Program-made: the position numbers and the translations under genes
Origin: Chlamydiota bacterium
GTDB lineage: Bacteria; Chlamydiota; Chlamydiia; Chlamydiales; SM23-39
Length of the DNA stretch: 64,000 nt
Assembly (NCBI GenBank): GCA_027366035.1
Contig: DAHXLK010000017.1
Span: 8,137 to 72,136 of the forward strand
Reading direction: 5' to 3'
Shown here: positions 1,692 through 63,872 of the stretch, piece after piece
How positions within the stretch are numbered: the first letter of the stretch is position 1
How the letters are laid out: each line of letters starts with the position of its first letter
The notes under the pieces: generated by a model
What the model saw: the letters and a program-made list of their open reading frames with translations, nothing else
What the model was told of the DNA's origin: nothing
Databases searched by the model: none

Positions 1692-1856
1692 GGGACTGTT
1701 GAAATCTCCGCTTTGTAGTTAAAATTTGAGCCTTGCAAAGCCGGTTTGATTTTTTTGAAAGTGACATATCCTGCTAAGGTATAGGCGCTTTTAAAAAGAT
1801 CAAATCCGGGGAAGCAAGGCTCAAATTTTAACCAAATGGGAGATCGAAACAGTCCC
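1692..1856 (+). repeat. Family-A long-palindrome MITE-like element, copy A1
   Basis: gggactgttgaaatctcc...ggagatcgaaacagtccc terminal inverted repeats. Perfect 18-nt inner IR ttaaaatttgagccttgc (1719-1736) / gcaaggctcaaattttaa (1814-1831). Flanked by the direct repeat TTCAT (1687-1691 and 1857-1861). Confidence 0.9.
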
Positions 1857-1857
1857 T

Positions 1858-3411
1858 TCATAGCAAACTTCTCATAAAATTGGTGAGTTCATTATGGGAG
1901 ATGATGGCCTCTACTTTCGGCAAAAATCGGTAGGTCCAGTTGGTATCTAAGTTGAGGCCGGGGACGTTGATCCTTTCTTGTAGCGGATCTTTATGAGTTA
2001 GCTCTTCAAAAAGGGCTAGGTATTCTTGCAGGAGGTTGATATGAAAAAGAGAAGGGGTCTTATGAGCATCTTGCAAAAGCTTTTCTCGGATATTGCTAGT
2101 ACATTTAGTTTCGTAGCGCCAACTACGGGTGGCGGCAAACTCTTTAGCTTCCAACGGATTATTTTCCCACCACTGGCGAAGGGTTTCACTGTCATGGGTG
2201 GAAACGGAGGTGAGGCTCACCGGATCGTAGTCCCGGGGCTTTATCAAGCTACCATCTTCTTGTTCATAGCGGGACCATCTTGGAATTTTAGTTCCCGGTA
2301 TTCCCAAATCTTTTAAGGTGGCGTAGACCTCTCCGGGGATAGTTCCAAGATCTTCTGCAATAGGGAGCATGTAACTGGATTGTAACAGCATATTGAGCTT
2401 CTCTCTTCCATGTTCAGGCCATAAATAACGATTATTACAGACAAAAGCCCCATCCATTGCTTTTTTCCCCGGAGGTATCCCCCAGATGCGAAAATAGCCT
2501 ACGACATGGTCCATCCGGTAAAGGTGAAACAGTTTTTCCGCTTCCTGCAAACGTCGGGTCCACCAGAAATAATTCCTGTTTTTATGCTCTGTCCAATTGT
2601 ATAAGGGGGATCCCCACAACTGTCCTTGGGCATTGTACATATCGGGAGGGGCTCCGGCGATAAGGTTTACATTGAAAAGATCTCCATGAAACCAGACGTC
2701 GGCACTTTCGAGGCTGACGGAAAGGGGGATATCTCCTTTTAAAAAAACCCTTTTTTCCGTGGCGTACCGTTTTACCTCTTGCATCTGTTCGTAGCAAAGG
2801 TATTGGACAAAGGATTGGAATTGAAGTTCGTCAGCATGGATTTTCATCAGATGAAAGAGCTCTTTTTCTGGTGGTTTTGGGAAGATAGGGTCTTTTTGGA
2901 TTGCTTGAAAAAGGCCATATTCGGTAAGCCACGGATTTTTATGGAAAAAAGCTTGGAAAGCATGGGCATGGTGTAAATTTTTTTGGTGGCGGCGAAAATA
3001 ATCTTTTAGTAGGGAAAGCTTTCGCCTTTTTACTTCAGCAAAAGGGACATGAGAAGAGCGGTTGCAGTCTTGCAGCGCTTTTAGCTTAGATTGTATTCCG
3101 TCTAACTCATAAAGATCGGGAAGTTTGGTGAGGCGCAGGTAGACGGGGTTGAGGGCGCAAGAAGAGGTGGGGTTAAAAGGGCTGGGGTCGAAGCCGGTAT
3201 CGTGGATGGGGAGGAGTTGGATTACATCTAGTCCTATGTGGCGGGCCCAGTCGATGAGAGGTAAAAGGTCGAAAAACTCTCCTATTCCCAGACTTTCTTC
3301 ACTTAAAAGGGAGGCGAGGTGGAGGCAAAAGCCGTGATGGGGATAAACTCCGATCCGGTGCCAGTGGGGGGCGGAGACCTTAGAAGAGAGGAGGGTGGGT
3401 AAATAGCTCAT
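1858..3411 (-). CDS. malQ: 4-alpha-glucanotransferase (amylomaltase, GH77)
   Basis: 517-aa ORF with GH77-typical segments (LPIHDTG, HLYRMDHVVGYFRIW, PIAEDLGTIP, STHDSETL). Position next to the T3S chaperone/copN as in Chlamydia. Confidence 0.9.
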   Translation of the reverse strand: MSYLPTLLSSKVSAPHWHRIGVYPHHGFCLHLASLLSEESLGIGEFFDLLPLIDWARHIGLDVIQLLPIHDTGFDPSPFNPTSSCALNPVYLRLTKLPDLYELDGIQSKLKALQDCNRSSHVPFAEVKRRKLSLLKDYFRRHQKNLHHAHAFQAFFHKNPWLTEYGLFQAIQKDPIFPKPPEKELFHLMKIHADELQFQSFVQYLCYEQMQEVKRYATEKRVFLKGDIPLSVSLESADVWFHGDLFNVNLIAGAPPDMYNAQGQLWGSPLYNWTEHKNRNYFWWTRRLQEAEKLFHLYRMDHVVGYFRIWGIPPGKKAMDGAFVCNNRYLWPEHGREKLNMLLQSSYMLPIAEDLGTIPGEVYATLKDLGIPGTKIPRWSRYEQEDGSLIKPRDYDPVSLTSVSTHDSETLRQWWENNPLEAKEFAATRSWRYETKCTSNIREKLLQDAHKTPSLFHINLLQEYLALFEELTHKDPLQERINVPGLNLDTNWTYRFLPKVEAIISHNELTNFMRSLL

Positions 3412-3815
3412 GGTGTCGGCAGGTGGCCCGATTCTATCCCCTTTTTATAAGAGATGGCCTTAGGAACTATCTCAAAGAGAAAGTCGGCTAGTTTTCTTCC
3501 ATTTATAGTATCTATATCAAAAGTTTCAAAGAGGAGAAGCTCATTTGCAAAGATATTGTAACCAAAGGTCCCGATCCGGGGATAGAGATGGTTTGCTTGT
3601 AGGGTATGTGTCAGGACATTTTCCCGAAATTTCCCGGGGGGGATAGTGCCGATAAAGGCTCCTACGATAAGTCTTTGCTCCATCTTTTCTAATTCGATTT
3701 GTATCCGGAGGGTCCCTTCTATCATGAGGGTACAGCTATTTTCGCTATCGACATAAAGTGGAATGTCGATCATTTTTCCAAGTTCTATAAGTATCTCTTG
3801 TAGCCTTTCTGTCAT
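3408..3815 (-). CDS. Type III secretion chaperone (CesT/SycE/Scc1-like), partner of CopN
   Basis: 135-aa acidic ORF. 4-nt overlap with both neighbours. Occupies the position of Scc1/SycE (CT088) between malQ and copN. Confidence 0.7.
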   Translation of the reverse strand: MTERLQEILIELGKMIDIPLYVDSENSCTLMIEGTLRIQIELEKMEQRLIVGAFIGTIPPGKFRENVLTHTLQANHLYPRIGTFGYNIFANELLLFETFDIDTINGRKLADFLFEIVPKAISYKKGIESGHLPTP

Positions 3816-4957
3816 GACTCGCTATCTAACTCATCTTCTAATTCTTCTAAAGCCTCTAAAAAAATATCCAACACATCTTGTTTGTGTTTATTGTTTCTAT
3901 AAAGTTTTGGGGCTACCTGTCTAATGGCATCCCTCATTTGGGTAAAAAGGATGATTTTTCCAATCGTTGTAGAGCTGACCCCTAAAAGGGAAGATATTTG
4001 TAAGATTTTATCTATGGAAACATATTTTTCTTGCAATAGTTTGAGAAACTGCTTTGCTAAAAGCTCAAAGGTTACGTCAGCAGGGGCTACTTGATGAAAA
4101 CTTAAAAACTGATTGTGAATCATCTTCATCCGAGATTCAAAAAAAGTGTAGACGCCTAGTATAGCTTGTAAAGTTCTGGTATCGCCTACTAATTTCTGTA
4201 ACTCGGGGCGTGAGATCGACGGCCCTTTTGATTTGATATCGCTGCCGAGCGAATGCAAAAAAAAGTCGACAACTGTCTTTAATTTTTCGAAAGGAAACTG
4301 GGAAAAGAGCTCTTGAAAGAGCTGCTGGGGATCTCTAGGAGAGCCGGTAATATCTCGGTACATATCGCGAAGGGCTGTCGGAGAACCAAGTCCTTTTGAG
4401 GAGAAGTCTAGCGCTTCTTGCTTAATGTTTCTTCCGGCCCGTATTTCCCTTCCATAAGATCGGTTGAAGGCATCTCTTGCTATCTGCAAGTTTTCTTGCA
4501 ACCTTCCTCCTGTCGTTTCAATTAAAAACTCTAGAGCTTCGTCAGCAAGAGAGTAGTCGGGGTAGATTTCTAGGACCTTAGCTAAAAGTGATTCGGGGGT
4601 ATCATTTTGAGATACCCTAGAAAGGAGGAGTTGTAAAGTTTTCGATTGAAACTCGGGATTACGGTCGGAAAATTTGGCAGCGGCATCTTCGGCTTGTTTT
4701 TTCTCTTCTACGATAACTTTGCCCTCTTCGCCATCGTCTTTTTTAGCTACTTTTGGTACCGGTTTTTCTTTTTGGAGCTCTTCTAAAGTTCTTTTAAGCA
4801 TTCCTGCCGGAAGGATCACCCCTTTATTTTCTACCCAATCCTCTAATTTCTCTCGGGAAGGAATTTGATTTGCGTTATGAGAATTTAGGGATTGTTTGGG
4901 AGCGATTTTTGTCGTTTTTATCATGGAATGGGGGATGGGGGTGGGCTGATCGACCAT
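3812..4957 (-). CDS. copN: T3SS gatekeeper SctW (CopN/LcrE family)
   Basis: 381-aa ORF immediately downstream of sctV. Size and position of chlamydial CopN. C-terminal helical HrpJ/YopN-like region. Confidence 0.8.
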   Translation of the reverse strand: MVDQPTPIPHSMIKTTKIAPKQSLNSHNANQIPSREKLEDWVENKGVILPAGMLKRTLEELQKEKPVPKVAKKDDGEEGKVIVEEKKQAEDAAAKFSDRNPEFQSKTLQLLLSRVSQNDTPESLLAKVLEIYPDYSLADEALEFLIETTGGRLQENLQIARDAFNRSYGREIRAGRNIKQEALDFSSKGLGSPTALRDMYRDITGSPRDPQQLFQELFSQFPFEKLKTVVDFFLHSLGSDIKSKGPSISRPELQKLVGDTRTLQAILGVYTFFESRMKMIHNQFLSFHQVAPADVTFELLAKQFLKLLQEKYVSIDKILQISSLLGVSSTTIGKIILFTQMRDAIRQVAPKLYRNNKHKQDVLDIFLEALEELEDELDSES

Positions 4958-4964
4958 ATTTTTT

Positions 4965-7091
4965 TTAAGTTAACTGTATCCTGCCTAGGGGTTGGATGCG
5001 TATTTCAGGGACGATTTCTTGATAGGAGACGACGGGAAGATCGGGAAATTCTCCTTCGATCAATTTTCTTACAAACCGTCGGATTTCGATAGCAGTGATT
5101 ACAACCGGAGGTTGTCCTCCCGAAGGGGTGGGGACGATAGTATTTCTTATCGAGTTTAAAATGAGCTGGGTAGCATCGGGATCGAGTGCTAAATACGAGC
5201 CTGCCGATGTCTGTTTAATCGATCCCCGGACCATATCTTCGATTTCGGGGTCTAACACATAGACCGAAAGGACCGATTGTCCTTGTGAATATTTGTAGGA
5301 GATATAGCGTTTTAAAGTGGAGCGGACGTATTCGGTAAGTAAGACGACATCTTTTTCAGCTTGGGCCCATTCAGATAAAGATTCTAAGATCGTTCGAAGG
5401 TCTTTAATCGATATCTGCTCTTGTACTAGCCTTCGTAAGATATCGGTCAATTTCTGCAAAGGGACGAGGCGGGTTACCTCTTTGACCAGATCGGGGAACG
5501 ATTTTTCTATGAACTCTAAGATGGCCCTTACCTCTTGAATCCCGATAAATTCGGCAGCATGTTGCCGGTAAAATCTAGAGAGATGGAGGATGATTACTTC
5601 TATTGCCGTCCAAAATTTCATCCCTCCTTTAGTAAGGACCTCTTGATACTGGATGGGGACCCAGAGGGTGGGCATGCCAAGGGAGCTTTTAGAGGGGATA
5701 AAGGGGACATTATATCTTTTCAGAGCTTCTTCCGCTTCATTGGTAAGAAGATGATTTAAAAGGATTTTTCCTCTGGTAATGGGGACTTCATTTAGGTGGA
5801 TAGCATATTCATCAGGCTCTAAAGAGGGCGATTCAGTCCTCACATGGACACCCGGAAATCGTACCCCCAGTTCGAAGTAAAGCGAGTGGCGCATTTTTGG
5901 GATCATCTGGTCGATAAAGGAAAGTCCCCCTTTTTCTTTTCGTATAAGGGCAGATAAAGCGTTACCCACCTCTAAGACGATCGGTAGGGTGAGAGTATAT
6001 TCATCGGTGCCCCCTGTTACAATGGCATGACCCTCGACATCGGTCTCTACTGCTGTCATGCCGGCAACTGCCTTTGCTGCCGCTTTTTTCATATTAGCTT
6101 GGACGACAAAACCTAAAGCGGCAGTACCTGTTGCTAGGATAAAAAAGGGGGTGGCCGGAAAGCCGGGGATAAAAGCCATGAGGAATAAGACCCCTCCGGA
6201 GATGAGGAGGGCTTTTGGTTGTTTTAGGATCTGATCCGAAATCTCTTTTCCAAGGTGGGCGTCTTTTCGGTCACTAGAGACCCGTGTCGTTACAATGCCC
6301 GCGGTGATGGCAATCATCAAAGCGGGGATTTGGGAGACAAGGCCATCGCCAATGGAGAGGAGGGAGTAGATCTTCACTGCTTGCCCTAGAGTCATCCCCT
6401 GCATGGCGACTCCGATGATTAGCCCTCCGACTATGTTGATAATAGCGATGACGATACTTGCGATAACATCTCCTTTAACGAATTTCATGGCACCGTCCAT
6501 CGCGCCATAGAGCTGACTTTCTTTGGTAAGGCCGAGCCTTAGTTCTCTAGCTTGATGGGTATCGATGACTCCCGAGCGGAGATCGGCGTCGATAGACATC
6601 TGTTTTCCAGGCATGGCGTCTAAGGTAAATCTGGCGGCCACTTCGGCGACCCTTTCGGCCCCTTTGGTGACCACGATGAATTGGACGATGGTGATGATTA
6701 AGAAGATGATACCGCCGACTACATAGTTGCCCCCTACAACGAAGTGGCCGAACGAGAAGATGATCTTTCCGGCGTTGTGGTGGAGTAAGATTTGCCGTGT
6801 CGAGGAGATGTTGACACCTAAACGGTAGAGGGTAGTGATAAGTAGAAGGCTTGGAAAGATCGACAATTGGATAGCTTTTTGGATATATAGAGCTACAAAA
6901 ATGAGGCAAACGGAAACCATGAGGTTGATCGAAATGAGGATGTCAATGACGTGTGGGGAGACGGGGAAGATCAGCATCATAATGATGCAGATGATGACAA
7001 ATGCTAAGACGAGGTCGCTGGAGCCTGAGACGGTACGTAAGGCCCTGTCTCCTCCTAAAAATTTAGCTAAGCTTTCTAAAAACTTATTCAC
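4965..7091 (-). CDS. sctV: T3SS export apparatus protein SctV (CdsV/LcrD)
   Basis: 708-aa ORF. N-terminal polytopic FHIPEP domain (FVVGGNYVVGGIIFLIITIVQFIVVTKGAERVAEVAARFTLDAMPGKQMSIDADL) plus a cytoplasmic C-terminal domain. Confidence 0.96.
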   Translation of the reverse strand: MNKFLESLAKFLGGDRALRTVSGSSDLVLAFVIICIIMMLIFPVSPHVIDILISINLMVSVCLIFVALYIQKAIQLSIFPSLLLITTLYRLGVNISSTRQILLHHNAGKIIFSFGHFVVGGNYVVGGIIFLIITIVQFIVVTKGAERVAEVAARFTLDAMPGKQMSIDADLRSGVIDTHQARELRLGLTKESQLYGAMDGAMKFVKGDVIASIVIAIINIVGGLIIGVAMQGMTLGQAVKIYSLLSIGDGLVSQIPALMIAITAGIVTTRVSSDRKDAHLGKEISDQILKQPKALLISGGVLFLMAFIPGFPATPFFILATGTAALGFVVQANMKKAAAKAVAGMTAVETDVEGHAIVTGGTDEYTLTLPIVLEVGNALSALIRKEKGGLSFIDQMIPKMRHSLYFELGVRFPGVHVRTESPSLEPDEYAIHLNEVPITRGKILLNHLLTNEAEEALKRYNVPFIPSKSSLGMPTLWVPIQYQEVLTKGGMKFWTAIEVIILHLSRFYRQHAAEFIGIQEVRAILEFIEKSFPDLVKEVTRLVPLQKLTDILRRLVQEQISIKDLRTILESLSEWAQAEKDVVLLTEYVRSTLKRYISYKYSQGQSVLSVYVLDPEIEDMVRGSIKQTSAGSYLALDPDATQLILNSIRNTIVPTPSGGQPPVVITAIEIRRFVRKLIEGEFPDLPVVSYQEIVPEIRIQPLGRIQLT

Positions 7092-8158: not shown

Positions 8159-8272
8159 ACCAACTACAGCCTATCGAAAGTGGGGTAAAAAGCAAATCGA
8201 TTTTGCTCGTAATGTTTTCCTTGTACGCAAATTTTCTTTTTGAGATAGTCACCTCTTTTTTCGAAAAAAAGT

Positions 8273-9374: not shown

Positions 9375-9458
9375 AATGTTTTTAAGTTTATCATAGATTG
9401 CTATTTTTTAAAAATAGAATTAAAAATTTACTATTGGGTTTTATGAAAAGTCAGTAAA

Positions 9459-9624
9459 GGGACTGTTGCAATCTTTAGCTTTGCCGTTAAAATTTGAGCC
9501 TTGCAAAGTCGGTTTGATTTTTTTGAAAGCGACATATCCTACTAAGGTATAGGAACTTTTAAAAAAATCAAATTCGAAGAAGCAAGGGTAAAATTTTAAC
9601 TAACCGGGAGATTTCAACAGTCCC
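9459..9624 (+). repeat. Family-A element, copy A2
   Basis: Full-length alignment to A1. Flanked by the perfect direct repeat GTAAA (9454-9458 and 9625-9629). Confidence 0.9.
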
Positions 9625-9656
9625 GTAAATAGTAAAATTTTTATTCCGGTAGCATG

Positions 9657-9822
9657 GGGCTATTTTGATCTTCGCATAGCTTTTAAAATTTGAGCTTTGC
9701 AAGGCCGGTTTGATTTTTTTTTGAAAATGACATATCCTACCAAGGTATAGGCACTTTTAAAAAGATCAAATTCGGGAAAGCAAGGGTAAAATTTTAACCA
9801 AATGGGAGATTTCAACAGTCCC
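9657..9822 (+). repeat. Family-A element, copy A3 (left terminal repeat decayed)
   Basis: Aligns to A1/A2 from ttaaaatttgagctttgc to agatttcaacagtccc. The left end has degenerated to gggctattttgatcttc. It lies 32 bp after A2 and ends 1 nt before the ychF stop codon. Confidence 0.85.
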
Positions 9823-9823
9823 G

Positions 9824-10918
9824 TCATGCATGATAAAACAAAATAACATCTCCATCTTGGACGATATATTCTTTTCCTTCTGACCTAGCTTTACCTGCTT
9901 CTCTAGCTTGAACCCTTCCTTTATAGGTGATCATATCCGAATAGGAGATGACCTCTGCACGAATAAACCCTTTTTCGATATCGCTATGGATACAGCCGGC
10001 AGCTTGGCTAGCTGTCATTCCTTTTTGGATCGTCCACGCACGGGTCTCCATCTCTCCTGCAGTGATGAAGGTAACAAGTCCAAGGAGCTCAAAGGCTGCT
10101 TTGATAAGTCTATTCAGCCCAGTCTCTTCGAGGCCGATGCTGTGTAAAAATTCTTTGGCATCTGCCTCATGTAACTGGGCTATCTCTTCTTCTAATTTGG
10201 CTGAGAGGGGAATTATCTTATTCCCTTCTACGTTTGCATACTCTTGGACACGCCGCGTAAGAGGATTTTCCATGGAGGGAAGGTCGTTTTCGCTGACATT
10301 GGTCACATAGAGAATTTTTTTTAAGGTGAGAAAAGGATATTTTTTTGCGATTTTGGCTTCTTCCTCAGTGAACGAGAATTTTCGAAGGGAAAGATTTTGG
10401 TTGAGATGGGAGAGGATTTTAGTAAAAAGGGCATGTTCTGCCTCTAACTCTTTTTTCCCTTTCATCTGCTTGGCAAGGCGGAAGGTGATGTTTTCGGCCA
10501 TCTGCAGATCAGCTAAGATGAGCTCAAGATTGATAACTTCGATATCTTGGATTGGGTCGATCTCTTGCATGATATGTATGACTTTCTCATCTTCAAAACA
10601 TCGGACTACTTGGATAATGGCATCAGTTTCGCGGATATTGGCGAGAAACTGGTTTCCGAGCCCCTCTCCTTTCGACGCCCCTTTGACAAGCCCTGCGATA
10701 TCGACAAAGGTGACCGTAGCATAGACAATTTTTTTGCTCTTATGGAGGAGGGCCAACTGTTCTAGCCTAGGGTCGATGAGGTTGACAATGCCCAGGTTCG
10801 GGTCGATGGTGCAAAAAGGATAGTTTTCGGCAGCGACCTGTTTTTTGGTGAGGGCATTAAAGAGGGTCGACTTGCCCACGTTGGGAAGCCCTACGATACC
10901 ACAAGAGAGCTCTTTCAT
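9824..10918 (-). CDS. ychF: Ribosome-binding ATPase YchF
   Basis: 364-aa ORF. G1 motif GIVGLPNVGKSTLFNALT. C-terminal TGS-like domain (RAWTIQKGMTASQAAGCIHSDIEKGFIRAEV). Confidence 0.96.
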   Translation of the reverse strand: MKELSCGIVGLPNVGKSTLFNALTKKQVAAENYPFCTIDPNLGIVNLIDPRLEQLALLHKSKKIVYATVTFVDIAGLVKGASKGEGLGNQFLANIRETDAIIQVVRCFEDEKVIHIMQEIDPIQDIEVINLELILADLQMAENITFRLAKQMKGKKELEAEHALFTKILSHLNQNLSLRKFSFTEEEAKIAKKYPFLTLKKILYVTNVSENDLPSMENPLTRRVQEYANVEGNKIIPLSAKLEEEIAQLHEADAKEFLHSIGLEETGLNRLIKAAFELLGLVTFITAGEMETRAWTIQKGMTASQAAGCIHSDIEKGFIRAEVISYSDMITYKGRVQAREAGKARSEGKEYIVQDGDVILFYHA

Positions 10919-14761: not shown

Positions 14762-14764
14762 CGC

Positions 14765-16039
14765 TTATACCTTTTTATGCTTCATTTGTTCTAAAATTTT
14801 GTCCGCGACATCAAAGTAGTTGAAGCCGGGGACCTTGGAAGTAAGCTCATGTGGACTGGCGCTGACTACTTTATATAAGGAGTCAAAACCGGCCGAATTT
14901 AGACTCTCGCTGATAAGGGTGCTCACCCCTTCGATGCGAAGAGGGCTTATGTGTATCGATGGGTCTTCACTTTTAGAAAGCTCTTCCATCTGTAGAGCGA
15001 CATGTTTTTGGTATTCGCTTAATTTTTGCACTTCAAACTCACAGCCGATTAGCTGTGAAATAAGTCTAGCATTCATCCCCCTCTTTCCAATGACGGCCGG
15101 GTAGTCTTCGTCTCCTACAATGATAGAAACAAGATTTTCATTGATCTTCAACTTACGAATTTCAATGGGCGATAGAGCATTTTGTAATAGTTGAAGCATG
15201 TCGTCAGAATAAGGGATGACATCGATCTTTTCATTGTTAAGTTCGCGTATGATATTTTTGATCCTTGTCCCCCGCACACCAACACAAGTCCCTACAGGGT
15301 CGACTTTAGGGTCATAGGAACGGACGGCTAATTTTGTCCGGTAGCCGGCATCTCGGACAATCTTTTCAATAGAAACCGTATTGTCGTTAATCTCAGGAAC
15401 CTCTTGTTTAAAGAGCTCTGCTACAAACCCCGGATGGCTCCGAGTTAGGACTACTTCCGCTCCACCACCTTCCGTATCGTGAACTTCTAAGAGGAGGGCT
15501 TGAACTTTTTCTCCAACTTGATAACGTTCGGTTTTGGGATAAAACCGCTCGGGAAGGAGGGCCTCTACTTTACCGAGATCTACGATGATATTTTTTCCGC
15601 GGACAAAACGTTTGATCGTTCCCGATATAATTTCACCTACACGGTGGCGGTACTCTTGATAGATCACATCTCTTTCGGCTCCACGGAGCTTTTGGCTGAT
15701 AATCTGTCTAGCCGTTTGTGCAGCGATCCTCCCAAAATCTTGGGGGGTAATGATAATTTCTAACCATTGACCTAACTGGCAGTTTGGCTCTAATTCCATC
15801 GCCTCTGTTAGAGAAATCTCCTCTTCGGGAAGCCGAACTACTTCGACAATTTTCTTTTGGGTTACGACCTCAATATCTCCCGTTTTAGGGTGAATTTGGA
15901 TATGAACTTTTCCTATGCCGGAGATACTTTTTCTGGCAGCGGCAAGGAGTGATTCGCGGATCGCTTCGATAACGATCTCACGCTTGATACCTTTTTCCCG
16001 TTCTAGGTATTCGAAAATAGCTACTAAATCTTTGTTCAT
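14765..16039 (-). CDS. nusA: Transcription termination/antitermination factor NusA
   Basis: 424-aa ORF with N-terminal, S1 and two KH domains (GVRGTRIKNIIRELNNEKIDVI, IGKRGMNARLISQLIG). Confidence 0.96.
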   Translation of the reverse strand: MNKDLVAIFEYLEREKGIKREIVIEAIRESLLAAARKSISGIGKVHIQIHPKTGDIEVVTQKKIVEVVRLPEEEISLTEAMELEPNCQLGQWLEIIITPQDFGRIAAQTARQIISQKLRGAERDVIYQEYRHRVGEIISGTIKRFVRGKNIIVDLGKVEALLPERFYPKTERYQVGEKVQALLLEVHDTEGGGAEVVLTRSHPGFVAELFKQEVPEINDNTVSIEKIVRDAGYRTKLAVRSYDPKVDPVGTCVGVRGTRIKNIIRELNNEKIDVIPYSDDMLQLLQNALSPIEIRKLKINENLVSIIVGDEDYPAVIGKRGMNARLISQLIGCEFEVQKLSEYQKHVALQMEELSKSEDPSIHISPLRIEGVSTLISESLNSAGFDSLYKVVSASPHELTSKVPGFNYFDVADKILEQMKHKKV

Positions 16040-16076
16040 AATTTTTTTAAAATTATAGAAAGTGGAGGCTTAGAGA

Positions 16077-17947: not shown

Positions 17948-18730
17948 ATGAGCACTTTGGTTATGAAATTTGGGGGGAGTAGTGTCACGGCCCCCGAAAA
18001 CTTTCTCTCTATTGCCAATATCATTGTCGAAAGGTCGAAGGTATTTTCTAAAATAGCCGTGGTGATAAGTGCTATGGGAAATACGACGGATCAGCTTATC
18101 GAGCTTGCTAAAAAAGTCCACCCCGACCCTCCAAAAAGGGAGCAGGATATGCTCATTTCAGTAGGGGAAAGGATTAGCAGTGCCCTTTTGGCTATGGCTT
18201 TGGCTCGAAAAGGGAAGGAGGCGATCAGCTTTACCGGAAGTCAGTCGGGTATTATTACTTCTTCTAATCATGCCGATGCTGTGATTATTGACGTCAAACC
18301 GGGGCGTCTTGTTTCCCATCTAAGCCTTGGAAAGATTGTCATTGTCGCCGGGTTTCAAGGAGTTGGGTTAAACGGAGAGATTACTACTTTAGGCAGAGGG
18401 GGGTCGGATACGACAGCTGTAGCTTTAGCGACTGCTCTTGGCGGGTGTAAAGTAGAATTTTATAAAGACGTATCCGGTATGTATGCCCAGGATCCTAAAA
18501 TAAATCCTTTAGCCCATTTTTATCACAAACTAAATTATGATGAGGCTATTGCTATTGCAAAGAAGGGGGGTATTGTCCATCCCCGCGCACTCATTCTCGC
18601 TAAAAAAAACGGCCTTTCCCTCCGGATCTTATCCTTTTTAGAATATAAGACAGGATCGGTAGAGGAATTGGGGACCCATATTGTGCCTGATATAGATAGA
18701 CCTTCCCCTACTTATGAAGAGGTTCCTTAA
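17948..18730 (+). CDS. lysC: Aspartokinase catalytic domain protein (amino-acid kinase family), no ACT regulatory domains
   Basis: 260-aa ORF. Motifs LVMKFGGSSV, AVVISAMGNTTDQLIELA, LGRGGSDTTAVALA. It ends right after the kinase fold. Confidence 0.75.
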   Translation: MSTLVMKFGGSSVTAPENFLSIANIIVERSKVFSKIAVVISAMGNTTDQLIELAKKVHPDPPKREQDMLISVGERISSALLAMALARKGKEAISFTGSQSGIITSSNHADAVIIDVKPGRLVSHLSLGKIVIVAGFQGVGLNGEITTLGRGGSDTTAVALATALGGCKVEFYKDVSGMYAQDPKINPLAHFYHKLNYDEAIAIAKKGGIVHPRALILAKKNGLSLRILSFLEYKTGSVEELGTHIVPDIDRPSPTYEEVP

Positions 18731-20608: not shown

Positions 20609-20693
20609 ACTCGTCTTAGCAAAATGTACAAAGTCGAGTGACCTTGCCCTCAAAAACTAGTCCGGTTGAGATTGGAGGTTTGTGATCTTTTTA

Positions 20694-20859
20694 GGGACTG
20701 TTTCGATTTCCCATTTGGTTAAAATTTTACCCCTGCTTCTTCGGATTTGACTTTTTTAAAAGTGCCTATACCTTAGTAGGATATGTCACTTTCAAAAAAA
20801 TCAAACCGACTTTGCAAGGCTCAAATTTTAACGGCAAAGCTAAAGATTTCAACAGTCCC
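20694..20859 (-). repeat. Family-A element, copy A4 (inverted orientation)
   Basis: Reverse complement aligns end to end with A2. gggactgtttcgatttcc...aaagatttcaacagtccc. Confidence 0.9.
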
Positions 20860-20899
20860 TTTTTGGGGGCAAGGTCAACATGCCGGGCGCACCTTTGAG

Positions 20900-20987
20900 A
20901 GCTTGTGTGAACACAGACTCTCAAATTTTGCTGCAAAGCTATCAAAAAGGACAATTTTAGCAAGTAAATGGAGTTTCAAAAAAAGTC
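20900..20987. repeat. Family-B palindromic element, half copy (one arm plus centre)
   Basis: tgtgtgaacacagactctcaaattttgctgcaaagctatcaaaaaggacaattttagcaagtaaatggagtttcaaaaaaagtc matches the arms of the full family-B copy at 26104-26267. Its end touches the nadE stop codon. Confidence 0.75.
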
Positions 20988-22624
20988 TAATGCTTCCATC
21001 GCTGAACGATCGGGAATATCCTCCCTTTGCTAAAAGCCCGTTTGGTTACCCGGATTCCGGGAGGAGCTTGCCGCCTTTTGTATTCGGCGTTATGGATTTT
21101 GTTTATGAGTCCTTGTACAAGATCTAACGAAAGTCCCCTTTTCTTGCTGATATCCGTAGCGCTTAAAAGCTCTTCGACATAATCTTCTTGCACCGCATCA
21201 ACAGTGGTATATTCGGGAAGGGTATCGATATCTCTTTGTCCGGGTTTTAGCTCTGCAGTTGGCTCTTTATCTAAAATAGTTTGGGGAATCACCTTCCGGC
21301 GGCGATTGATAAATCTAGCCAGCTGATAGACCTGAGCTTTAGAGACATCATTTAAGACTCCAAGGCCGCCACACATATCGCCATAAAGAGTGGTGTAACC
21401 CATCGCCATCTCCGATTTATTGCCGGTACTCAAGACAATCGATCCAAATTTATTGGAAAAGGCCATTAAGATTATCCCCCTGATGCGAGACTGGAGGTTT
21501 TCTTCGGTAATATCCGGTTTATTTTTAGAAAAATGGGGGGCCAAAGTATCCAGAAAAGATTGAAACAGAGTATCTATAGAGAGATAAAGGAGTTTTATCT
21601 CCAAATTTTTTACAAGAAGGAGCGAATCTTCATAGCTCTCTTTAGAAGAGTAACGGGTAGGGAGAAAAAGGCAGGTGATGTTTTCTTTACCCAAGGCTTT
21701 TTCAGCAATGCAAGCAACCAGGGCTGAATCGATACCTCCGGATAAACCAAGTAGGGCTTTTTTAAAGCCTTGCTTGGAAAAATAATCCTTCACTCCTAAA
21801 ACTAGGGCAGAAAAGAGATCTTCGTAGATATCTTGTTCAAAGGCGATGGGAGATAGCCCCTGTTCCGTATCGATAATAAGATAGTCTTCTACAAACCCTT
21901 TGGCAACTTGGAGAAGCTCTCCTTTACTGCTCATATAAAGGCTGTAGCCATCAAAGATAAGCTGGTCATTCGCCCCTACTTGGTTGCAATAAACGATCGG
22001 ACATTTCAAAGTTTTTGCCGTAGCCGCAAAAGTAATGACCCTAGTATCTCGCTTTTGAAAATAGTAAGGGGAGGCGGAGAGGTTGAGGAGGAGGTCGGGG
22101 GGATTTTCTGCCAACTCTTTAACAGGGTCTCTCCTATAGTGGGTAAATAAAAGGTCCCCTCCATGTTGCCACATATCTTCACAGATAAGGATGGCGATTT
22201 TTTTTCCTTTATACTCGAAGATTTTCTGCTCTTTACCCGGTTCAAAATACCTCCTTTCATCAAAGACATCATAAGTAGGGAGGAGCGTCTTGTCCTTATA
22301 ACCTACCAGCCTGCCGTCGATAATAACTGCCGCTGAGTTAAAGGCCCCTTTTTCTTTCCCCTCCGGATTTTTCCTCGCCAGCCCTATCACAACCATAAGA
22401 TCGCTAGATGCTTTACAAATTTTTGGCATAACTTCTTCCATCTTTTCTAAAAAGCTCGGGTAGAAAAGGAGATCTTCAGGAGGGTAGCCGCAAAGGGTAA
22501 GTTCTGAGAAAAGGACAATATCGGCTTTTTGTTTTTTCCCTTTAGCGATGGCCTGAAAAATTTTTTTGACATTGTAGGTAAAGTCGCCGATGATTAAATT
22601 AAGTTGGGCTACAAAAATACGCAT
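20987..22624 (-). CDS. nadE: Glutamine-dependent NAD+ synthetase (CN-hydrolase + NAD synthase domains)
   Basis: 545-aa ORF. N-terminal nitrilase-like domain (FSELTLCGYPPEDL, ICEDMW). C-terminal PP-loop LGLSGGIDSALVA. Confidence 0.95.
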   Translation of the reverse strand: MRIFVAQLNLIIGDFTYNVKKIFQAIAKGKKQKADIVLFSELTLCGYPPEDLLFYPSFLEKMEEVMPKICKASSDLMVVIGLARKNPEGKEKGAFNSAAVIIDGRLVGYKDKTLLPTYDVFDERRYFEPGKEQKIFEYKGKKIAILICEDMWQHGGDLLFTHYRRDPVKELAENPPDLLLNLSASPYYFQKRDTRVITFAATAKTLKCPIVYCNQVGANDQLIFDGYSLYMSSKGELLQVAKGFVEDYLIIDTEQGLSPIAFEQDIYEDLFSALVLGVKDYFSKQGFKKALLGLSGGIDSALVACIAEKALGKENITCLFLPTRYSSKESYEDSLLLVKNLEIKLLYLSIDTLFQSFLDTLAPHFSKNKPDITEENLQSRIRGIILMAFSNKFGSIVLSTGNKSEMAMGYTTLYGDMCGGLGVLNDVSKAQVYQLARFINRRRKVIPQTILDKEPTAELKPGQRDIDTLPEYTTVDAVQEDYVEELLSATDISKKRGLSLDLVQGLINKIHNAEYKRRQAPPGIRVTKRAFSKGRIFPIVQRWKH

Positions 22625-25245: not shown

Positions 25246-25410
25246 GGGACTGTTGAAATCTCCCATTTGGTTAAAATTTTACCCTTGCTTCTCCGAATTT
25301 GATGCTTTTAAAAGTGCTTATACCTTGGTAGGATATGTCGCTTTCAAAAAAATCACACCGGCTTTGAAAGGTTCAAATTTTAACGGAAAAGCGAAGATCG
25401 AAACAGTCTC
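25246..25410 (-). repeat. Family-A element, copy A5 (inverted orientation, right terminus slightly decayed)
   Basis: gggactgttgaaatctcccatttggttaaaattttacccttgc...gaagatcgaaacagtctc aligns to the reverse complement of A2/A3. Confidence 0.88.
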
Positions 25411-26103: not shown

Positions 26104-26267
26104 TAGACTTCTTTCGAAACTCCATTTGCTCGCTAAAATTGTCCTTTTTGACAGCTTTGCCGCAAAATTTTTCAACCATGTGTTCAAACATGCTCTCAAA
26201 ATTTTGCTGCAAAGTTGTACAAAAATTGCTAATTTTATCAAACAAAGCGAGTTTCGAAAGAAGTCTA
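26104..26267. repeat. Family-B long-palindrome element, full copy B1
   Basis: 19-nt perfect terminal inverted repeats tagacttctttcgaaactc (26104-26122) / gagtttcgaaagaagtcta (26249-26267). The arms are imperfect inverted repeats around the centre caaccatgtgttcaaacatgctc. It fills the whole rpe-stop to yvcK-start gap. Confidence 0.85.
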
Positions 26268-47016: not shown

Positions 47017-47050
47017 CCAGATTTCAACAGTCCCCTTTTGGAGGCAAGAT
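47017..47050. repeat. Isolated right end of a family-A element plus conserved flank
   Basis: ccagatttcaacagtcccc ttttggaggcaagatc matches the right end and flank of copy A4 (aaagatttcaacagtccc tttttgggggcaaggtc, 20842-20876). The rest of the element is absent. Confidence 0.7.
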
Positions 47051-47066
47051 CATATTGCATAATGTC

Positions 47067-49131: not shown

Positions 49132-49138
49132 AATTGCA

Positions 49139-49211: not shown

Positions 49212-49235
49212 TTTATAAAGGAAAAAAAATAAACT

Positions 49236-50012: not shown

Positions 50013-50016
50013 AAAT

Positions 50017-50445: not shown

Positions 50446-50446
50446 T

Positions 50447-51648: not shown

Positions 51649-51658
51649 GGTAAAAGCC

Positions 51659-52057: not shown

Positions 52058-52085
52058 AGAATTTACTTTAAAGGAGGGATAGTAG

Positions 52086-58800: not shown

Positions 58801-60033
58801 GAAAATAGGACATTAGAAGAGTATAAAAAACTTCTCAATATGAAATCGATCGAACCGCTACAAACTTTTAACCTCGAACTAGGTACAAAGATTTTTCTCT
58901 CAGACGGAGCTAAAGTTTCTAAGGGGCAGAAATTGGGAGAATGGGAGCAGCACTCTAGTCCTATCATTTGCGAACGTCCCGGTTATGTCAGATATGATGA
59001 CCTTGTCGAAGGGATCTCTACTCAAAAAGAGATCAATAAGCAGACAGGGCAGGTCGAATTGATTGTCAAACAACACCGAGGAGAGCTCCATCCTCAAATT
59101 GCTATCTATGCCGACTCCCATTATTCGGAGTTGATCGGTACCTACGCGATCCCTTCCGGAGCATCGATTTCAGTGAAGGAGGGACAGCATGTGAAAGTAG
59201 GTATGATCCTTGCCAAACTTTCTAGAGGAGCTATTAAGACAAGAGATATTACCGGAGGTCTTCCCCGTGTCGCCGAGCTTTTCGAAGCTAGGCGACCTAA
59301 AGAGGCTGCTGAAATTGCTAAAATCGACGGTATTGTCGATTTCAAAGGGGTCCAAAAGAACAAGAGGATTTTAGTGGTTAAAGATGAGGTTTCCGGAATG
59401 GAAGAAGAACACCTCATCCCACTTACAAAACATTTGATCATTCAGCGTGGCGATCATGTCGTCAAAGGGCAGCAGCTCACCGAGGGGCTTATCGTCCCGC
59501 AGGAGATTCTCGAAGTCTGCGGCGTTCGCGAATTACAGAAATATATGGTCAACCAGGTTCAAGAAGTCTATCGTCTCCAAGGTGTTGACATCAACGATAA
59601 ACACATCGAAATTATCGTCCGTCAGATGTTGCAGAAGGTGAAGGTTATTGACCCCGGTGACACCACTTTTCTCTATGGGGAAAATGTCGATAAGAAACGG
59701 TTTCATCAATTGAATACTAAGACATTAGGAGAAGGAGGCAAGCCTGCCCAGGCAGCGCCTGTCCTATTAGGTATCACTAAAGCTTCTTTGGGTACCGAGT
59801 CGTTTGTCTCTGCGGCCTCTTTTCAAGAGACAACCCGTGTCCTTACCGATGCGGCTAGTGAAGGAAAGACCGATTATCTCCTTGATTTTAAGGCCAACCT
59901 TATTATGGGGCATATGATTCCCGGTGGTACTGGCTATGAATACCATAAGAAGGTGAAGAAGTTTGTCGACCGTGAGCTGGAAGAAGAGCTCATCTTTGAT
60001 TTTGGCGAAAAGCATGAGGAATCCTTAGTTTAA
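55855..60033 (+). CDS. rpoC: DNA-directed RNA polymerase subunit beta'
   Basis: 1392-aa ORF. Zinc motif CACGKYKK...CDRCGVEV. Catalytic NADFDGDQM. Confidence 0.99.
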
Positions 60034-60198
60034 GGGATTGTTGAAATCTCCGCTTTGCCGTTAAAATTTGAGTCTTGCAAAGCCGGTTTAATTTTTTTGA
60101 AAGTGACATATCCTACTAAGGTATAGGCTCTTTTAAAAAGATCAAATCCGAGGAAGCAAGAGTAAAATTTTAATCAAACGGAAGATCGAAACAATCTT
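60034..60198 (+). repeat. Family-A element, copy A6 (termini slightly decayed)
   Basis: gggattgttgaaatctccgctttgccgttaaaatttgagtcttgc...ggaagatcgaaacaatctt. Starts at the nucleotide after the rpoC TAA. Confidence 0.88.
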
Positions 60199-60260
60199 AG
60201 TATAGCTATTTTCCAAAAAATCAAATCTGGTGAAACTTGGATCTCACAAGGAATCCTGTT

Positions 60261-60293
60261 AAAAAAAAGGACTCTGTAGATACAAAGTCCTTT
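60261..60293 (-). terminator. Rho-independent terminator downstream of the small basic ORF
   Basis: The minus strand reads aaaggact-ttgtatctacag-agtccttt followed by ttttt (8-bp perfect stem, 12-nt loop, T-run). It lies about 27 nt after the ORF stop. Confidence 0.7.
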
Positions 60294-60319
60294 AACATAA
60301 TAATTTCCAAAAAAAGAAA

Positions 60320-60424
60320 TTAGCAAATGCAAGACTTGGATCGTTTCCTAGATTTTCGAGTAGTTTTTCTTGCCGTTTTCCTTTTGACGGAACGTCTTTT
60401 TCCTTTTCCTTTTTTTTTAGCCAT
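60320..60424 (-). CDS. Unannotated 34-aa extremely basic peptide MAKKKGKGKRRSVKRKTARKTTRKSRKRSKSCIC
   Basis: Hand translation. ATG at 60424 is preceded by AAGGAGG (60430-60436) with a 5-nt spacer. TAA at 60320-60322. A terminator follows. 18 of 34 residues are K/R. Missed by the 60-aa ORF cut-off. Confidence 0.6.
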   Translation of the reverse strand: MAKKKGKGKRRSVKRKTARKTTRKSRKRSKSCIC

Positions 60425-60591
60425 AGGTTCCTCCTTTTAACATGAATTATTGGCTCTAATTTAACCAATAATGATGATGTCATTTTAATGCAACAAATTC
60501 ATAAAAATTTTTTTCTGTTTTATTAGAAATAGGTATTTATAAAAGGCTTAAAAATTAAGGGTAACCAAAAACTCTGTGTGCTTTTCATACA

Positions 60592-60758
60592 GGGACTGTT
60601 GAAATCTCCGCTTTGCCGTTAAAATTTGGGCCTTGCTTCCCCGGATTTTATCTTTTTAAAAGTGCCTATACCTTAGTAGAGGATATGTCACTTTCAAAAA
60701 AATCAAACCGACTTTGCAAGGCTCAAATTTTAACCAAATGGGAGGTCGAAACAGTCCC
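60592..60758. repeat. Family-A element, copy A7: outer arms in plus orientation, inner core (60637-60715) inverted
   Basis: The outer parts match A1 collinearly (gggactgttgaaatctccgctttgccgttaaaatttgggccttgc ... gcaaggctcaaattttaaccaaatgggaggtcgaaacagtccc). The segment between the 18-nt inner inverted repeats matches the reverse complement of the A1 core. Confidence 0.88.
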
Positions 60759-60788
60759 TTTATACTCGAGAGCGCCATCCGGAGATTT

Positions 60789-62591
60789 TTATGTTTTCGT
60801 CTTTCTTTTGTAATAGGAAAAACTTAAGAAAAAGCAAATGATTGCAACTATCCATACAACAATATTCGGTAGAGTGATCCAAGAATAGCCGGGTTCAGGT
60901 AAAGACCCCATCCGCGGAGATAAAGGCCAAAACAATAGGTTGACTCCACCACGAATGTTTCCTTGAGGGACAAAACCAAAGACGCGGCTATCTGAACTTC
61001 TGGCATGGTTATCCCCTAAAACAAGGTACATATTCTCAGGAACGTACAGACCGTTTTTCTTCAAAAGCTCTACCTGCAGCTTCCCATCCTTAATAGGGGA
61101 GCCAAGGTCGATGAAAGGGGTATCTGTTGCCTTTTCTTTTTGGATAAAGGATTGTAGTTCAGGGTCATTTTCTTGATAAATAGGATGTCCCATAGCATAA
61201 AGATCGTGATCGCGGAAGTAGATGTATCGAGAAGGTCTAGCGATATGGAGGTGAAATTCATTGCCTAAATTATAAAAGAGCTGTAAACGTTCCGGCGTAC
61301 GGAGATAAAGAGGATGATTTTTTGCCAGCTCCTTTGTGATGCTAGACCAGAGAACCTTATAGGCTTTCCCATCTTGAAACTCATAGGTCCCATCAGGGAC
61401 GCCTTCTAGTTTGGGAAGAAACTCTTCCGCTACATCTCGGGAACCATAGAGAGAGGCCCGCCCATTTTTCACGACGAATCTTGCTGTATAAAGGGACAAA
61501 AATAGCCGGTCGATCGCCTTGTCCGACAAGGGTAGGATAGAGGTGGTATAGCTAAGGCCCGGACGGACCCTTCCATATTCATCACGGATAATTTTTACGG
61601 GGTGCATCGAAGGGTGATGGGTAATTTCCAAAAATAGGGGGGCTTTTTCTTGAGAGGTAATCTCTTTCCCGGAAACGATTTTTCCCATCCCATAGTTTTT
61701 AAAACCCCAAAGATCACCATAGGTATTGGGTACTACACTAGCCGATCCGGCTCTCGGTATGGGGAGCATTTCTCCAGAACCTTCCCCAAAAACCGAAGCG
61801 GTTAGTTTAGCGATCGGTTCATTCATTTGGTAGAGAGTCGCAGAGGTAAAAATCCCGTGAGTGGCCATCTGCCCCGTCTTCACCTTCCCATCAAAATGGA
61901 TAAAAGGGATGTGCTCCATTTCATGAAACCATGATCTTTCTTTATATTCGGTAATCTCGTTCCCGTCACGGTCTATCCCATAGAGGAGGCCGCCATAAAA
62001 ATAAAGGAGGTCGCCTGGCTTGGCTATGAGCCTTTTTACAAACTGCTTTTTCCCCGGAATGAGATAAAAATACATCGTATTCACATCAGGGATATCCATA
62101 TCCTCCCCTGTAAATACGACTATCTGTCCTCTTTTTATAAGGTCAGATCCAAAATAAAATTGCGAAGTACTCAGAGGGACATTCAAACCAAAATCAGTTT
62201 TGAAAACGAAGACAAAGTCTTGTTCTTTCAAAGTGGGACGCATAGAACCGGTAGGAATTACATAGGGTTCAAACCATGTCTGCCGAATAAGGATGGCAAT
62301 AGCTAAGGCAAACGATAACCCTAGGATAAACTGAAAGGTCTTCTCTAAAGGGGTTCTCGGAAGAAAGAGGGCCATATCTTTTTCTATTTCGCGGCAAAGT
62401 TCTTCTGCTTTTTTCCGCTCTTTTCCCCCTATCGCCTCTTTTAAAGCTTTTAGCTTTTCTTCAAAATGTCTCCCCTTATCGGTAACTTTCTTCTTTTTTC
62501 GGTAGCGTTTACTAGCTGCATGAAGGATTTTGCGACATTTGTGTAAGGAATACATAATTAAGGATATTAGTATAGCGATTTCTCCTACCAC
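60789..62591 (-). CDS. lepB: Signal peptidase I (long chlamydial-type LepB)
   Basis: 600-aa ORF. Catalytic Ser box IPTGSMRPTL. KRLIAKPGD. C-terminal box LGDNHARSSDSR. N- and C-terminal TM segments. Confidence 0.92.
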   Translation of the reverse strand: MVGEIAILISLIMYSLHKCRKILHAASKRYRKKKKVTDKGRHFEEKLKALKEAIGGKERKKAEELCREIEKDMALFLPRTPLEKTFQFILGLSFALAIAILIRQTWFEPYVIPTGSMRPTLKEQDFVFVFKTDFGLNVPLSTSQFYFGSDLIKRGQIVVFTGEDMDIPDVNTMYFYLIPGKKQFVKRLIAKPGDLLYFYGGLLYGIDRDGNEITEYKERSWFHEMEHIPFIHFDGKVKTGQMATHGIFTSATLYQMNEPIAKLTASVFGEGSGEMLPIPRAGSASVVPNTYGDLWGFKNYGMGKIVSGKEITSQEKAPLFLEITHHPSMHPVKIIRDEYGRVRPGLSYTTSILPLSDKAIDRLFLSLYTARFVVKNGRASLYGSRDVAEEFLPKLEGVPDGTYEFQDGKAYKVLWSSITKELAKNHPLYLRTPERLQLFYNLGNEFHLHIARPSRYIYFRDHDLYAMGHPIYQENDPELQSFIQKEKATDTPFIDLGSPIKDGKLQVELLKKNGLYVPENMYLVLGDNHARSSDSRVFGFVPQGNIRGGVNLLFWPLSPRMGSLPEPGYSWITLPNIVVWIVAIICFFLSFSYYKRKTKT

Positions 62592-62839
62592 GTCAATGTT
62601 GAAAGTTTGTCGATAAGTCGAAAGAAGAGCTCTATTTGTTTTTTTAAATCGCTGAATTGCAAATAGAAAGAGGAACAGAGGAGAAGCGTCTTAAATTATT
62701 AAAAATAAATGAGTTATTTCTGAATTTCCCGTTAGTTGTTATTTTTTTACTTCGATTAATGGCTTATTTTGAAAATTATGTTCATAACTTGTTAAGGAAA
62801 ATATTAAGTTTTTGCAAAAGAGTAAGGGATTCAAGTCGT

Positions 62840-63553
62840 TTATTTGGAAGGCAGGTCCGGGTAAAGCGAGGATAAATTTCTTCCGGAATCGATCACTTTA
62901 GAAACGACAGTATTGCCGGTTCCTAAAACCTGGATCCAAAAAGGAAAGGGATAGTTGTCGGCAAAGTAGAATTCTACCGTCTTACCTGCAAGCTCAGAGC
63001 CGTCTTTTGGCCAATCGACATAATAGACAGAGAATTTAGGGCAAGGGAGGGCTTTCCCCTCGACAACAGCAGGTGGGGACCAAATTGTTCTACGATCGAT
63101 CTCTTCAGTAGGAGGTGGTGGGGGCCCCACTCTTTTCCTCATCTTAGCCGGCTCTTCGGTGAAGGATAGGTGAAAGAGGGAAGAGATAAAATGACTTTGA
63201 TCTCGCATTTCGACCCAAGAAGAGCGGGTATAAGAATAGGCCCTAATGACAGTTGCCTCTTTAATAGCTATTTCATACAGGACCCAAGAGGTATGCCCTT
63301 TAGCCCCTGCAAAAATCCATTGCTGCCATTCATTACGAATCGAAGGGGTAAGGGGGGAAGGGAAAGAGATCTCTTCTAAAAATAGCCGTTCTTTATTGAA
63401 AGAATGGATCCGAATCAAAGAGATGTTTTTGTCCTGTTCGGTGACGATATAATCTCCCGGTGCCACATGCTTTACTCGGTCTTGAAAAAAATTGGCAAAG
63501 ATAAGAGGTGGAAGAAATAAAAGAAATAATAACTTTTTCATTGTAAAATACAA
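62840..63553 (-). CDS. Secreted/periplasmic hypothetical protein
   Basis: 237-aa ORF. Signal-peptide-like MKKLLFLLFLPPLIFANFF. No recognisable domain. Confidence 0.55.
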   Translation of the reverse strand: MYFTMKKLLFLLFLPPLIFANFFQDRVKHVAPGDYIVTEQDKNISLIRIHSFNKERLFLEEISFPSPLTPSIRNEWQQWIFAGAKGHTSWVLYEIAIKEATVIRAYSYTRSSWVEMRDQSHFISSLFHLSFTEEPAKMRKRVGPPPPPTEEIDRRTIWSPPAVVEGKALPCPKFSVYYVDWPKDGSELAGKTVEFYFADNYPFPFWIQVLGTGNTVVSKVIDSGRNLSSLYPDLPSK

Positions 63554-63710
63554 TTACGGGACATACTGTAATCGCGCTTTTGTTTTAGCATGATACAAAT
63601 TGCTAGCAAAAAAGGGTTGCTCCTTTAAAAGGTGGTAGTATTATTCTCCACAAAGTTTAGAACTTAACATTCTCATAATAACCGAGGGTAAAACCTCAAA
63701 AAACTATAAG

Positions 63711-63872
63711 GGGACTGTTTCGATCTTCCATTTGGTTAAAATTTTACCCTTGCTTCCCCGGAGTTGATCTTTTTCAAGCGCCTATACCTTAGTAGGATAT
63801 GTCACTTTCAAAAAAATCAAACCGGCTTTGCTAGGCTCAGATTGTAACCAAATGGGAGATCGAAACAGCCCC
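63711..63872 (-). repeat. Family-A element, copy A8 (core in minus orientation; mosaic subterminal modules)
   Basis: gggactgtttcgatcttccatttggttaaaattttacccttgc...gctaggctcagattgtaaccaaatgggagatcgaaacagcccc. Both subterminal 9-mers are of the ccaaatggg type. Confidence 0.85.

Follow-up and report, generated by a model that had tools for sequence, protein, structure and literature searches.

The stretch analysed here, a 64-kb window (64,000 nucleotides of contig DAHXLK010000017.1, from a Chlamydiota bacterium), has about 43% G+C and a chlamydia-like gene content, with the type III secretion genes sctU, sctV and copN, a CesT chaperone, a CT021-family protein and a conserved gene order from malQ to ychF. 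Between its genes lie eight full copies, A1 to A8, of a palindromic repeat of about 165 bp with inverted ends. The copies are very probably miniature transposable elements with inverted repeats (MITEs), that is, non-autonomous and non-coding elements derived by deletion from a DNA transposon of the cut-and-paste or copy-paste type. They show the generic features of prokaryotic MITEs (small size, many dispersed copies, terminal inverted repeats, a duplication of fixed length and no coding capacity) and form a new family of a well-known element class in an isolated, uncultured chlamydial lineage.

The end motif GGGACTGTT occurs 12 times in the window, compared with 0.31 occurrences expected from shuffles, and a repeat finder together with an nhmmer profile (E values from 1e-49 to 1e-56) recovered the eight full-length copies and none further. 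An earlier annotation made from the letters alone (hereafter the sequence-only reading) had placed eight full copies in both orientations at these sites (Table 1). All eight were recovered at their claimed places, with two corrections: A3 starts at 9656 rather than 9657, and an isolated end given as 47017-47033 lies at 47019-47034. The four sequence modules that it described are all visible in the alignments; its asymmetric centre of about 40 nt, on the other hand, turned out to be mostly paired, with just some 10-14 nt unpaired at the tip. Its statements that the copies are intergenic (8 of 8 in the window) and encode nothing also hold: one reading frame is open across the whole element, and the read-through open reading frames (ORFs) are related only to other copies of the repeat.

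For the family statistics we used 26 full copies, the eight of the window plus 18 from six further contigs, amounting to about 190 kb of one metagenome assembly. Full copies range from 152 to 176 bp, and nearly all carry terminal inverted repeats of about 18 bp, GGGACTGTT[GAAA/TCGA]TCTCC, at both ends. The GAAA and TCGA variants are found in all four left/right combinations (8, 6, 8 and 3 copies), and because of these two variants the termini are the least conserved part of the element. Conservation of the centre (0.94) does not exceed that of the arms (0.93-0.96). In the window, A3 is the most decayed copy, with the left end GGGGCTATT, while the termini of A6 present a paired C-to-T / G-to-A change on both sides (GGGATTGTT...AACAATC).

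Table 1. Repeat copies and isolated end in the window. Strand is defined by the asymmetric centre GACATATCCTACTAAGGTATAGG.
Feature	Position	Strand	Ends and flanks	Gene context
A1	1692-1856	+	left end GAAA type, right end TCGA type; nhmmer E = 2.4e-55	
A2	9459-9624	+	duplication GTAAA at 9454-9458 and 9625-9629	first member of tandem pair
A3	9656-9822	+	flanks AGCAT/GTCAT agree 3/5	second member of tandem pair
A4	20694-20859	-	flanks TTTTA/TTTTT agree 4/5	between convergent 625-aa gene and nadE
A5	25246-25410	-		between htpG stop and rpe start
A6	60034-60198	+		immediately 3' of rpoC TAA stop
A7	60592-60758	-		30 nt 3' of signal peptidase (lepB-like) stop
A8	63711-63872	-		13 nt downstream of stop (63886-63888) of minus-strand gene running off window
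Solo right-end remnant	47019-47034	+	AGATTTCAACAGTCCC	between lexA-like (Peptidase_S24) gene and sufE

The strongest sign of transposition is found in the flanks. Exact 5-bp direct repeats border 8 of the 26 copies, compared with 0.04 expected from mismatched flank pairs, and four more copies agree at four of the five positions; a perfect duplication of 6-9 bp was present in none of the 26. The perfect pentamers (TTCAT, GTAAA, ATAAT, AATGT, TCCAA, TTTTA, CATAT and ATATT) are together 85% A+T.

Removal of an element with one of its pentamers reconstructs the empty site. A1 is flanked by TTCAT at 1687-1691 and 1857-1861, and when the copy and one TTCAT are taken out the sequence becomes ...TATGAAA..., where the TGA stop of the malQ-like gene (Glyco_hydro_77) overlaps the ATG of the adjacent 498-aa gene (ATGA). 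Likewise, deletion of the copy at L088:15557-15725 with one TTTTA leaves two convergent genes with TAA stops that overlap in TTAA; with the element in place, one of these genes ends in TAG (TA plus the first G of the element), and the other keeps its TAA in the second repeat. The codon contacts listed in the sequence-only reading are all present: A6 starts at 60034, directly behind the rpoC stop with its last base at 60033, A3 ends at 9822, just ahead of the ychF stop at 9824, and A1 is bracketed by an ATG at 1691 and a stop at 1858. Such contacts are better explained by AT-rich pentamer targets at tightly packed gene boundaries, with the codons rebuilt by the duplication.

The family extends well beyond the window. 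The left part of the window corresponds to contig k141_863314 (84.6 kb) of ENA assembly ERZ27233573, and the six contigs fetched from the same assembly hold, in addition to the 18 full copies, about 10 partial ones. About 9 more are visible only as spurious ORFs on contigs beyond these, and the family is spread over at least 13 contigs from this organism. Identity between copies averages 82% (range 60-98%). The window holds about one copy per 8 kb; extrapolated to a genome assumed to measure 1.5-2.5 Mb, this density would correspond to some 200-300 copies. A profile of the repeat translations retrieved 15 short ORFs among 5.8 billion proteins, all from NCBI/ENA, and every one that could be placed sits in ERZ27233573. 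Several window genes also appear on short Logan contigs of run SRR33270664, two of which break inside copies: L002 at its start, 56 nt into A1, and L003 at its end, 35 nt into A6. An independent assembly that breaks within the copies is as expected for a real dispersed repeat.

Outside this organism the searches were negative. The central motif GAAARYGACATATCCTN{3,5}AAGGTAT, present in 8 of 8 window copies, had no match in one genome per GTDB species or in the JGI metagenomes; a scan of the JGI metagenomes with the end motif gave no match, nor did blastn against 72,556 plasmids. In an Rfam scan of the window tRNAs alone reached the gathering threshold, and a permissive Rfam search with the element returned generic plant miRNA hairpin models as the best hits, at 33 bits against a threshold of 54. 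The view that the element belongs to no named repeat family is thus upheld in Rfam, plasmids, GTDB genomes, JGI metagenomes and foreign proteins. Other Chlamydiota genomes showed no copies: the GTDB species scan gave none, and the syntenic type III secretion loci of chlamydial relatives, fetched through SctV, contain no copy. The nearest SctV among GTDB species representatives belongs to Chlamydiae bacterium SM23_39 (78% identity), and the nearest homologue of the 498-aa TPR/transglutaminase protein encoded beside A1 shares 57% identity (among the 5.8 billion proteins). In the chlamydial relatives the malQ/TPR junction is a plain 44-nt spacer, which we rejected as an empty site because it is too distant.

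Debris and secondary insertions accompany the intact copies. Besides the A2/A3 tandem pair, half copies and solo ends are scattered across the sampled contigs, and an internally deleted mini-copy of 63 nt is nested within another remnant (L085 16278-16388). Two copies with 98% identity lie as an inverted pair around a 139-aa FKBP gene (L086:14342-14516 and 15010-15185); they have in common a private 9-nt insertion, GAGTAAGAC, and their layout resembles that of a composite transposon. A4 is inserted within a remnant of the inverted ends of an IS3-like element (window 20639-20688 and 20860-20877; left TGACCTTGCCC(T/C)CAAAAACTAGTCC..., right TTTTTGGGGGCAAGGTCA), ends that match the left end of an IS3-like element with an HTH_Tnp_1 orfA in L092:1-50. 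The same kind of IS3-like end, CTTTTGGAGGCAAGATCA (47035-47052), follows the solo MITE end at 47019-47034, and such a composite of MITE and remnant may have been copied as a unit. With these nested, tandem, truncated and near-identical copies, the 5-bp duplications and the spread over at least 13 contigs, the proposal of a non-autonomous, MITE-like mobile element is well supported.

Some arrangements on the sampled contigs deserve separate mention. At L087:16148-16215, two solo left MITE ends stand in tandem and in direct orientation with TTTTA between them; the ORFs beside them were considered as a parent transposase and rejected, as they carry no transposase signature. At L084:17953-18552, a MITE copy is cut at 18015, after 62 nt, and is followed by an ORF with a maturase domain (GIIM, E = 2.7e-16). 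This ORF was likewise rejected as a parent, being a group II intron maturase, and a group II intron probably inserted into the MITE hairpin at this site. At L085:10137-10167, a gene of the lipoate/biotin ligase family (BPL_LplA_LipB) draws its last 10 codons and its stop from a MITE copy, an insertion that probably replaced the original C-terminus; this is the only one of the 26 copies that overlaps a gene in this way.

Mechanistically, a DDE-type transposase acting in trans would recognise the terminal inverted repeats of about 18 bp and insert the element into an AT-rich pentamer by a 5-bp staggered cut, whose repair would duplicate the pentamer. In a tightly packed genome, insertions would persist only in the short gaps or overlaps between genes, where the 5-bp duplication, sometimes together with the terminal G of the element, would rebuild the stop or start codon on either side. 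The mean identity of 82% suggests a long residence in the lineage, yet the 98% pair points to fairly recent movement. A copy transcribed along with its neighbours would form a very stable hairpin on either strand, and any effect on the host would be a by-product.

Several observations weigh against this reading. In 12 of the 26 copies no duplication can be recognised, and inspection by eye for flank exchange through recombination among copies without duplications (A6-A8) revealed no complementary flank pairs. Strains or close species offer no presence/absence polymorphism, as the relatives nearest to this organism stand at 57-78% protein identity and are without the element; for this reason mobility is inferred from the duplications and not observed directly. 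In addition, the transposase gene bounded by the same terminal repeats, which the sequence-only reading had suggested as the parent, was not found: neither the roughly 190 kb of sampled DNA nor the end-pattern scan of the JGI metagenomes yielded an autonomous element with the ends GGGACTGTT...AACAGTCCC. Orphan MITEs are common, and since about 190 kb of this genome was searched, the missing parent does not exclude membership of this class.

Further points of the same kind come from comparison with known insertion sequences (ISs). An intact IS of the IS1634 family, 1,894 bp long, lies at L091:142-2035, on the same ENA contig as the left end of the window; its nearer end is outside the window, about 8 kb from that left end and about 9.7 kb from A1, and its transposase measures 547 aa (NCBIfam NF033559, 367 bits). 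Its 18-bp ends, CCCGAGTTTGACACCTGA, defined from three contigs, start with C, as is typical of the family, whereas the MITE ends start with GGG, and just an internal GTT(T)GA..C.T stretch is held in common, which again speaks against the proposed origin. No MITE-type end within 3 mismatches was found near this IS, and we rejected it as the direct parent because its ends differ. The IS1634 family makes 5-6-bp duplications in AT-rich tracts (PMC2266710), a trait that the MITE shares (5 bp, 85% A+T) while its end sequences are different, and cross-mobilisation by the IS1634-family transposase is a low-probability option. Relatives of this IS at 65-80% identity are common, one of them named as coming from a Chlamydiae metagenome-assembled genome and many located on contigs about 1.9 kb long; another sample (L092) has an IS1634-family copy inserted in an IS3-like orfA.

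IS6 elements make 8-bp and IS903 elements 9-bp duplications; unlike IS26 and IS903 (8-9 bp), no MITE copy has an 8-bp direct repeat, and this counts against a source in that group. The terminal 14 nt of the MITE, GGGACTGTTG(A/C)AAT, have GG at positions 1-2, TGT at 6-8 and G at 10. This agrees with the end signature of the IS26 family, which is also that of IS903 (IS26 GGCACTGTTGCAAA, IS903 GGCTTTGTTGAATA; PMC8477213), and in this respect the MITE ends are typical of DDE insertion sequences. The G at position 10 is found only in GAAA-type ends, and about half of the MITE termini, those of the TCGA variant, have T instead. No IS6- or IS903-type transposase was seen in the sampled DNA. The type of transposase, its action in trans and any effect on transcripts are inferred.

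The hairpin potential described in the sequence-only reading was confirmed by folding, with a near end-to-end hairpin in every window copy and predicted energies from -47 to -90 kcal/mol (eight copies). The most perfect is A1, with -89.8 kcal/mol (z = -13.7) for the RNA and -51.9 kcal/mol (z = -11.8) for the DNA. The strand with GACATATCC folds more stably in 23 of the 26 copies, by a mean of 6 kcal/mol, a difference due to G-U pairs; this asymmetry reflects shared descent from a master copy and is no evidence of selection. In the full hairpin, 89.8% of the pair cells are paired and about 10% are broken, most substitutions being one-sided. Two results of this analysis go against purely selfish origins. 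Double-sided changes occupy 14 cells compared with 8.6 +/- 2.2 in shuffles (a value reached by 9 of 500 shuffles), and four copies have matching changes at both termini, namely GGGCCTG/CAGGCCC, GGGATTG/CAATCCC (twice) and GGGGCTG/CAGCCCC, which a purely selfish DDE model does not predict. Covariation of the hairpin is weak, and related sequences can attain such a value without any structure; the matched terminal changes possibly reflect pairing under weak selection, repair inside the palindrome or master copies that differed.

These data bear on a rival explanation that we consider improbable, according to which the element was once mobile but is now kept as a domesticated structural module, serving at gene ends as a two-way transcription stop, a barrier to 3' exonucleases or an RNase III processing site that would uncouple adjacent genes. 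It would account for the extreme stability of the hairpins on both strands with the GACATATCC strand favoured, for the small excess of double-sided compensatory changes, and for the frequent contact with stop codons: seven of the 26 copies contain a stop codon or have one at a distance of 0-2 nt, and at least one stop codon precedes 21 of the 26. The Correia elements of Neisseria offer a precedent for such roles (PMC2649163). The contexts of the copies, however, are 8 convergent, 13 co-directional and 5 divergent, a ratio that looks random, being close to the 1:2:1 of random intergenic insertion, and five copies thus have a divergent gene start on either side. Both orientations relative to transcription occur: of the 12 co-directional copies scored, 7 have the centre-defined strand in the direction of transcription and 5 have it opposed, without bias. 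The stem is followed by the variable duplicated pentamer and not by a T-run, so that no copy has the short G+C-rich stem plus T-run of an intrinsic terminator; a scan for sigma-70 promoter and intrinsic-terminator consensus sequences found none inside the copies, and the integration host factor (IHF) site consensus WATCAANNNNTTR was not found in the element when checked by eye. The broken and one-sidedly substituted pairs, the inherited G-U asymmetry and the codon contacts expected from AT-rich targets plus duplication point in the same direction. The sequence-only reading had suggested a possible second role as terminator, regulatory RNA structure or mRNA-stability structure; the sequence lends this no support, given the lack of promoter and terminator consensus, the random context, the mixed orientation and the weak covariation.

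A related idea is that the hairpin itself, and not the end sequences alone, is under selection; we regard it as unlikely. It draws on the matched terminal changes in four copies, the higher stability of one strand and the many stop-codon contacts. If it were correct, the family may have been co-opted as a two-way module for transcript ends or processing that insulates neighbouring genes or, alternatively, may transpose through a folded single-strand intermediate and yet make a 5-bp duplication, an unusual mechanism.

Much less probable still is a REPIN-like origin, in which an inverted pair of repetitive extragenic palindromic (REP) sequences is moved as a folded single strand by a REP-associated tyrosine transposase (RAYT, of IS200/IS605 type). 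The long imperfect palindrome, the intergenic multicopy distribution and the occasional joint change of both arms are in line with this origin, but REP and REPIN movement occurs without target duplication whereas here it is exactly 5 bp, the ends have no GTAG or CGTC tag, about 165 bp exceeds REPIN size, and no Y1 transposase appears among the Pfam families of the genes called in about 190 kb. Finally, that the repeats are not mobile at all, but a product of local duplication, recombination or assembly, can practically be dismissed: although all data come from metagenome assemblies of one organism and no close relative provides an empty site, the copies differ by 2-40%, lie beside unrelated housekeeping genes on at least 13 contigs with a flanking pentamer of their own, and interrupt the independent assembly of SRR33270664 inside A1 and A6.

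As a MITE family, the repeats recall the Correia elements (CREE/NEMIS) of Neisseria. Both are intergenic palindromic MITEs of about 100-160 bp without a known parent, probably with at least 100 copies in a genome of about 2 Mb, and often co-transcribed with their neighbours as long hairpins; the alpha and beta ends of Correia likewise give two variants per terminus in all four combinations. However, Correia elements show no sequence similarity to the repeats, duplicate TA, have unrelated 26-bp ends and belong to another phylum, whereas the present family duplicates 5 bp of variable sequence and has no recognisable IHF-site consensus or outward promoter. Tn3-family non-autonomous elements also combine 5-bp duplications with ends that start with a G run. 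Tn3-family ends measure about 38 bp, start with GGGG and end with TAAG, whereas the present ends start with GGGA and are without the Tn3 layout; the sampled DNA showed neither a transposase nor a resolvase of the Tn3 family. We also rejected an attC/integron-like reading, as cassette arrays are lacking, housekeeping genes surround the copies and the R-box consensus is unmatched.

Coxiella QMITE1/2 and the Rickettsia palindromic elements (RPEs) are similarly small, palindromic and non-autonomous elements of compact intracellular genomes, with a reading frame open across the whole element as in our family. Their hairpins are predicted at -90 to -110 kcal/mol (PMC10969869). QMITE2 differs in its direct repeats of 7-9 bp, compared with 5 bp here, and RPEs typically lie in frame inside genes, unlike the intergenic copies of the window; neither has sequence similarity to the present family. 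Chlamydiae are absent from the prokaryotic MITEs listed in a 2024 review (PMC10969869), and none of the titles that a full-text literature search on chlamydial MITEs brought up describes one, so this may be the phylum's first recorded MITE family.

The family indicates that a compact, host-dependent genome can bear selfish DNA at the density seen in the window, and that a 5-bp duplication lets an element settle inside overlapping stop and start codons with both genes undamaged. It opens no new mechanism and settles no old question. In practice, the repeats fragment short-read assemblies of this organism and cause gene callers to emit spurious ORFs of 50-100 aa; they could also be used as a strain-typing marker and as natural long hairpins for studies of chlamydial transcript processing.

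Beyond the MITE family, the window contains a second, distinct palindromic repeat of about 165 nt at 26104-26267 (-69.6 kcal/mol), bounded by TAGACTTCTTTCGAAACTCCATTTG and its complement, which exactly fills the gap from the rpe stop (26103) to the next ATG (26269). Further pieces of it are a half copy at 20894-20992 in the window and a solo end at L090:12378-12403. By eye, its ends match TCGA-type MITE ends at about 17 of 26 positions, while BLAST finds short shared words only; kinship with the main family is not established.

Among the neighbouring genes, A8 lies 157 nt upstream of the CT021-like gene. Between A6 and A7, the minus strand holds an extremely basic 34-aa ORF, MAKKKGKGKRRSVKRKTARKTTRKSRKRSKSCIC (60320-60424), and behind it comes a terminator hairpin of textbook form (60293-60266) that includes a T-run; this ORF may be a real small gene.

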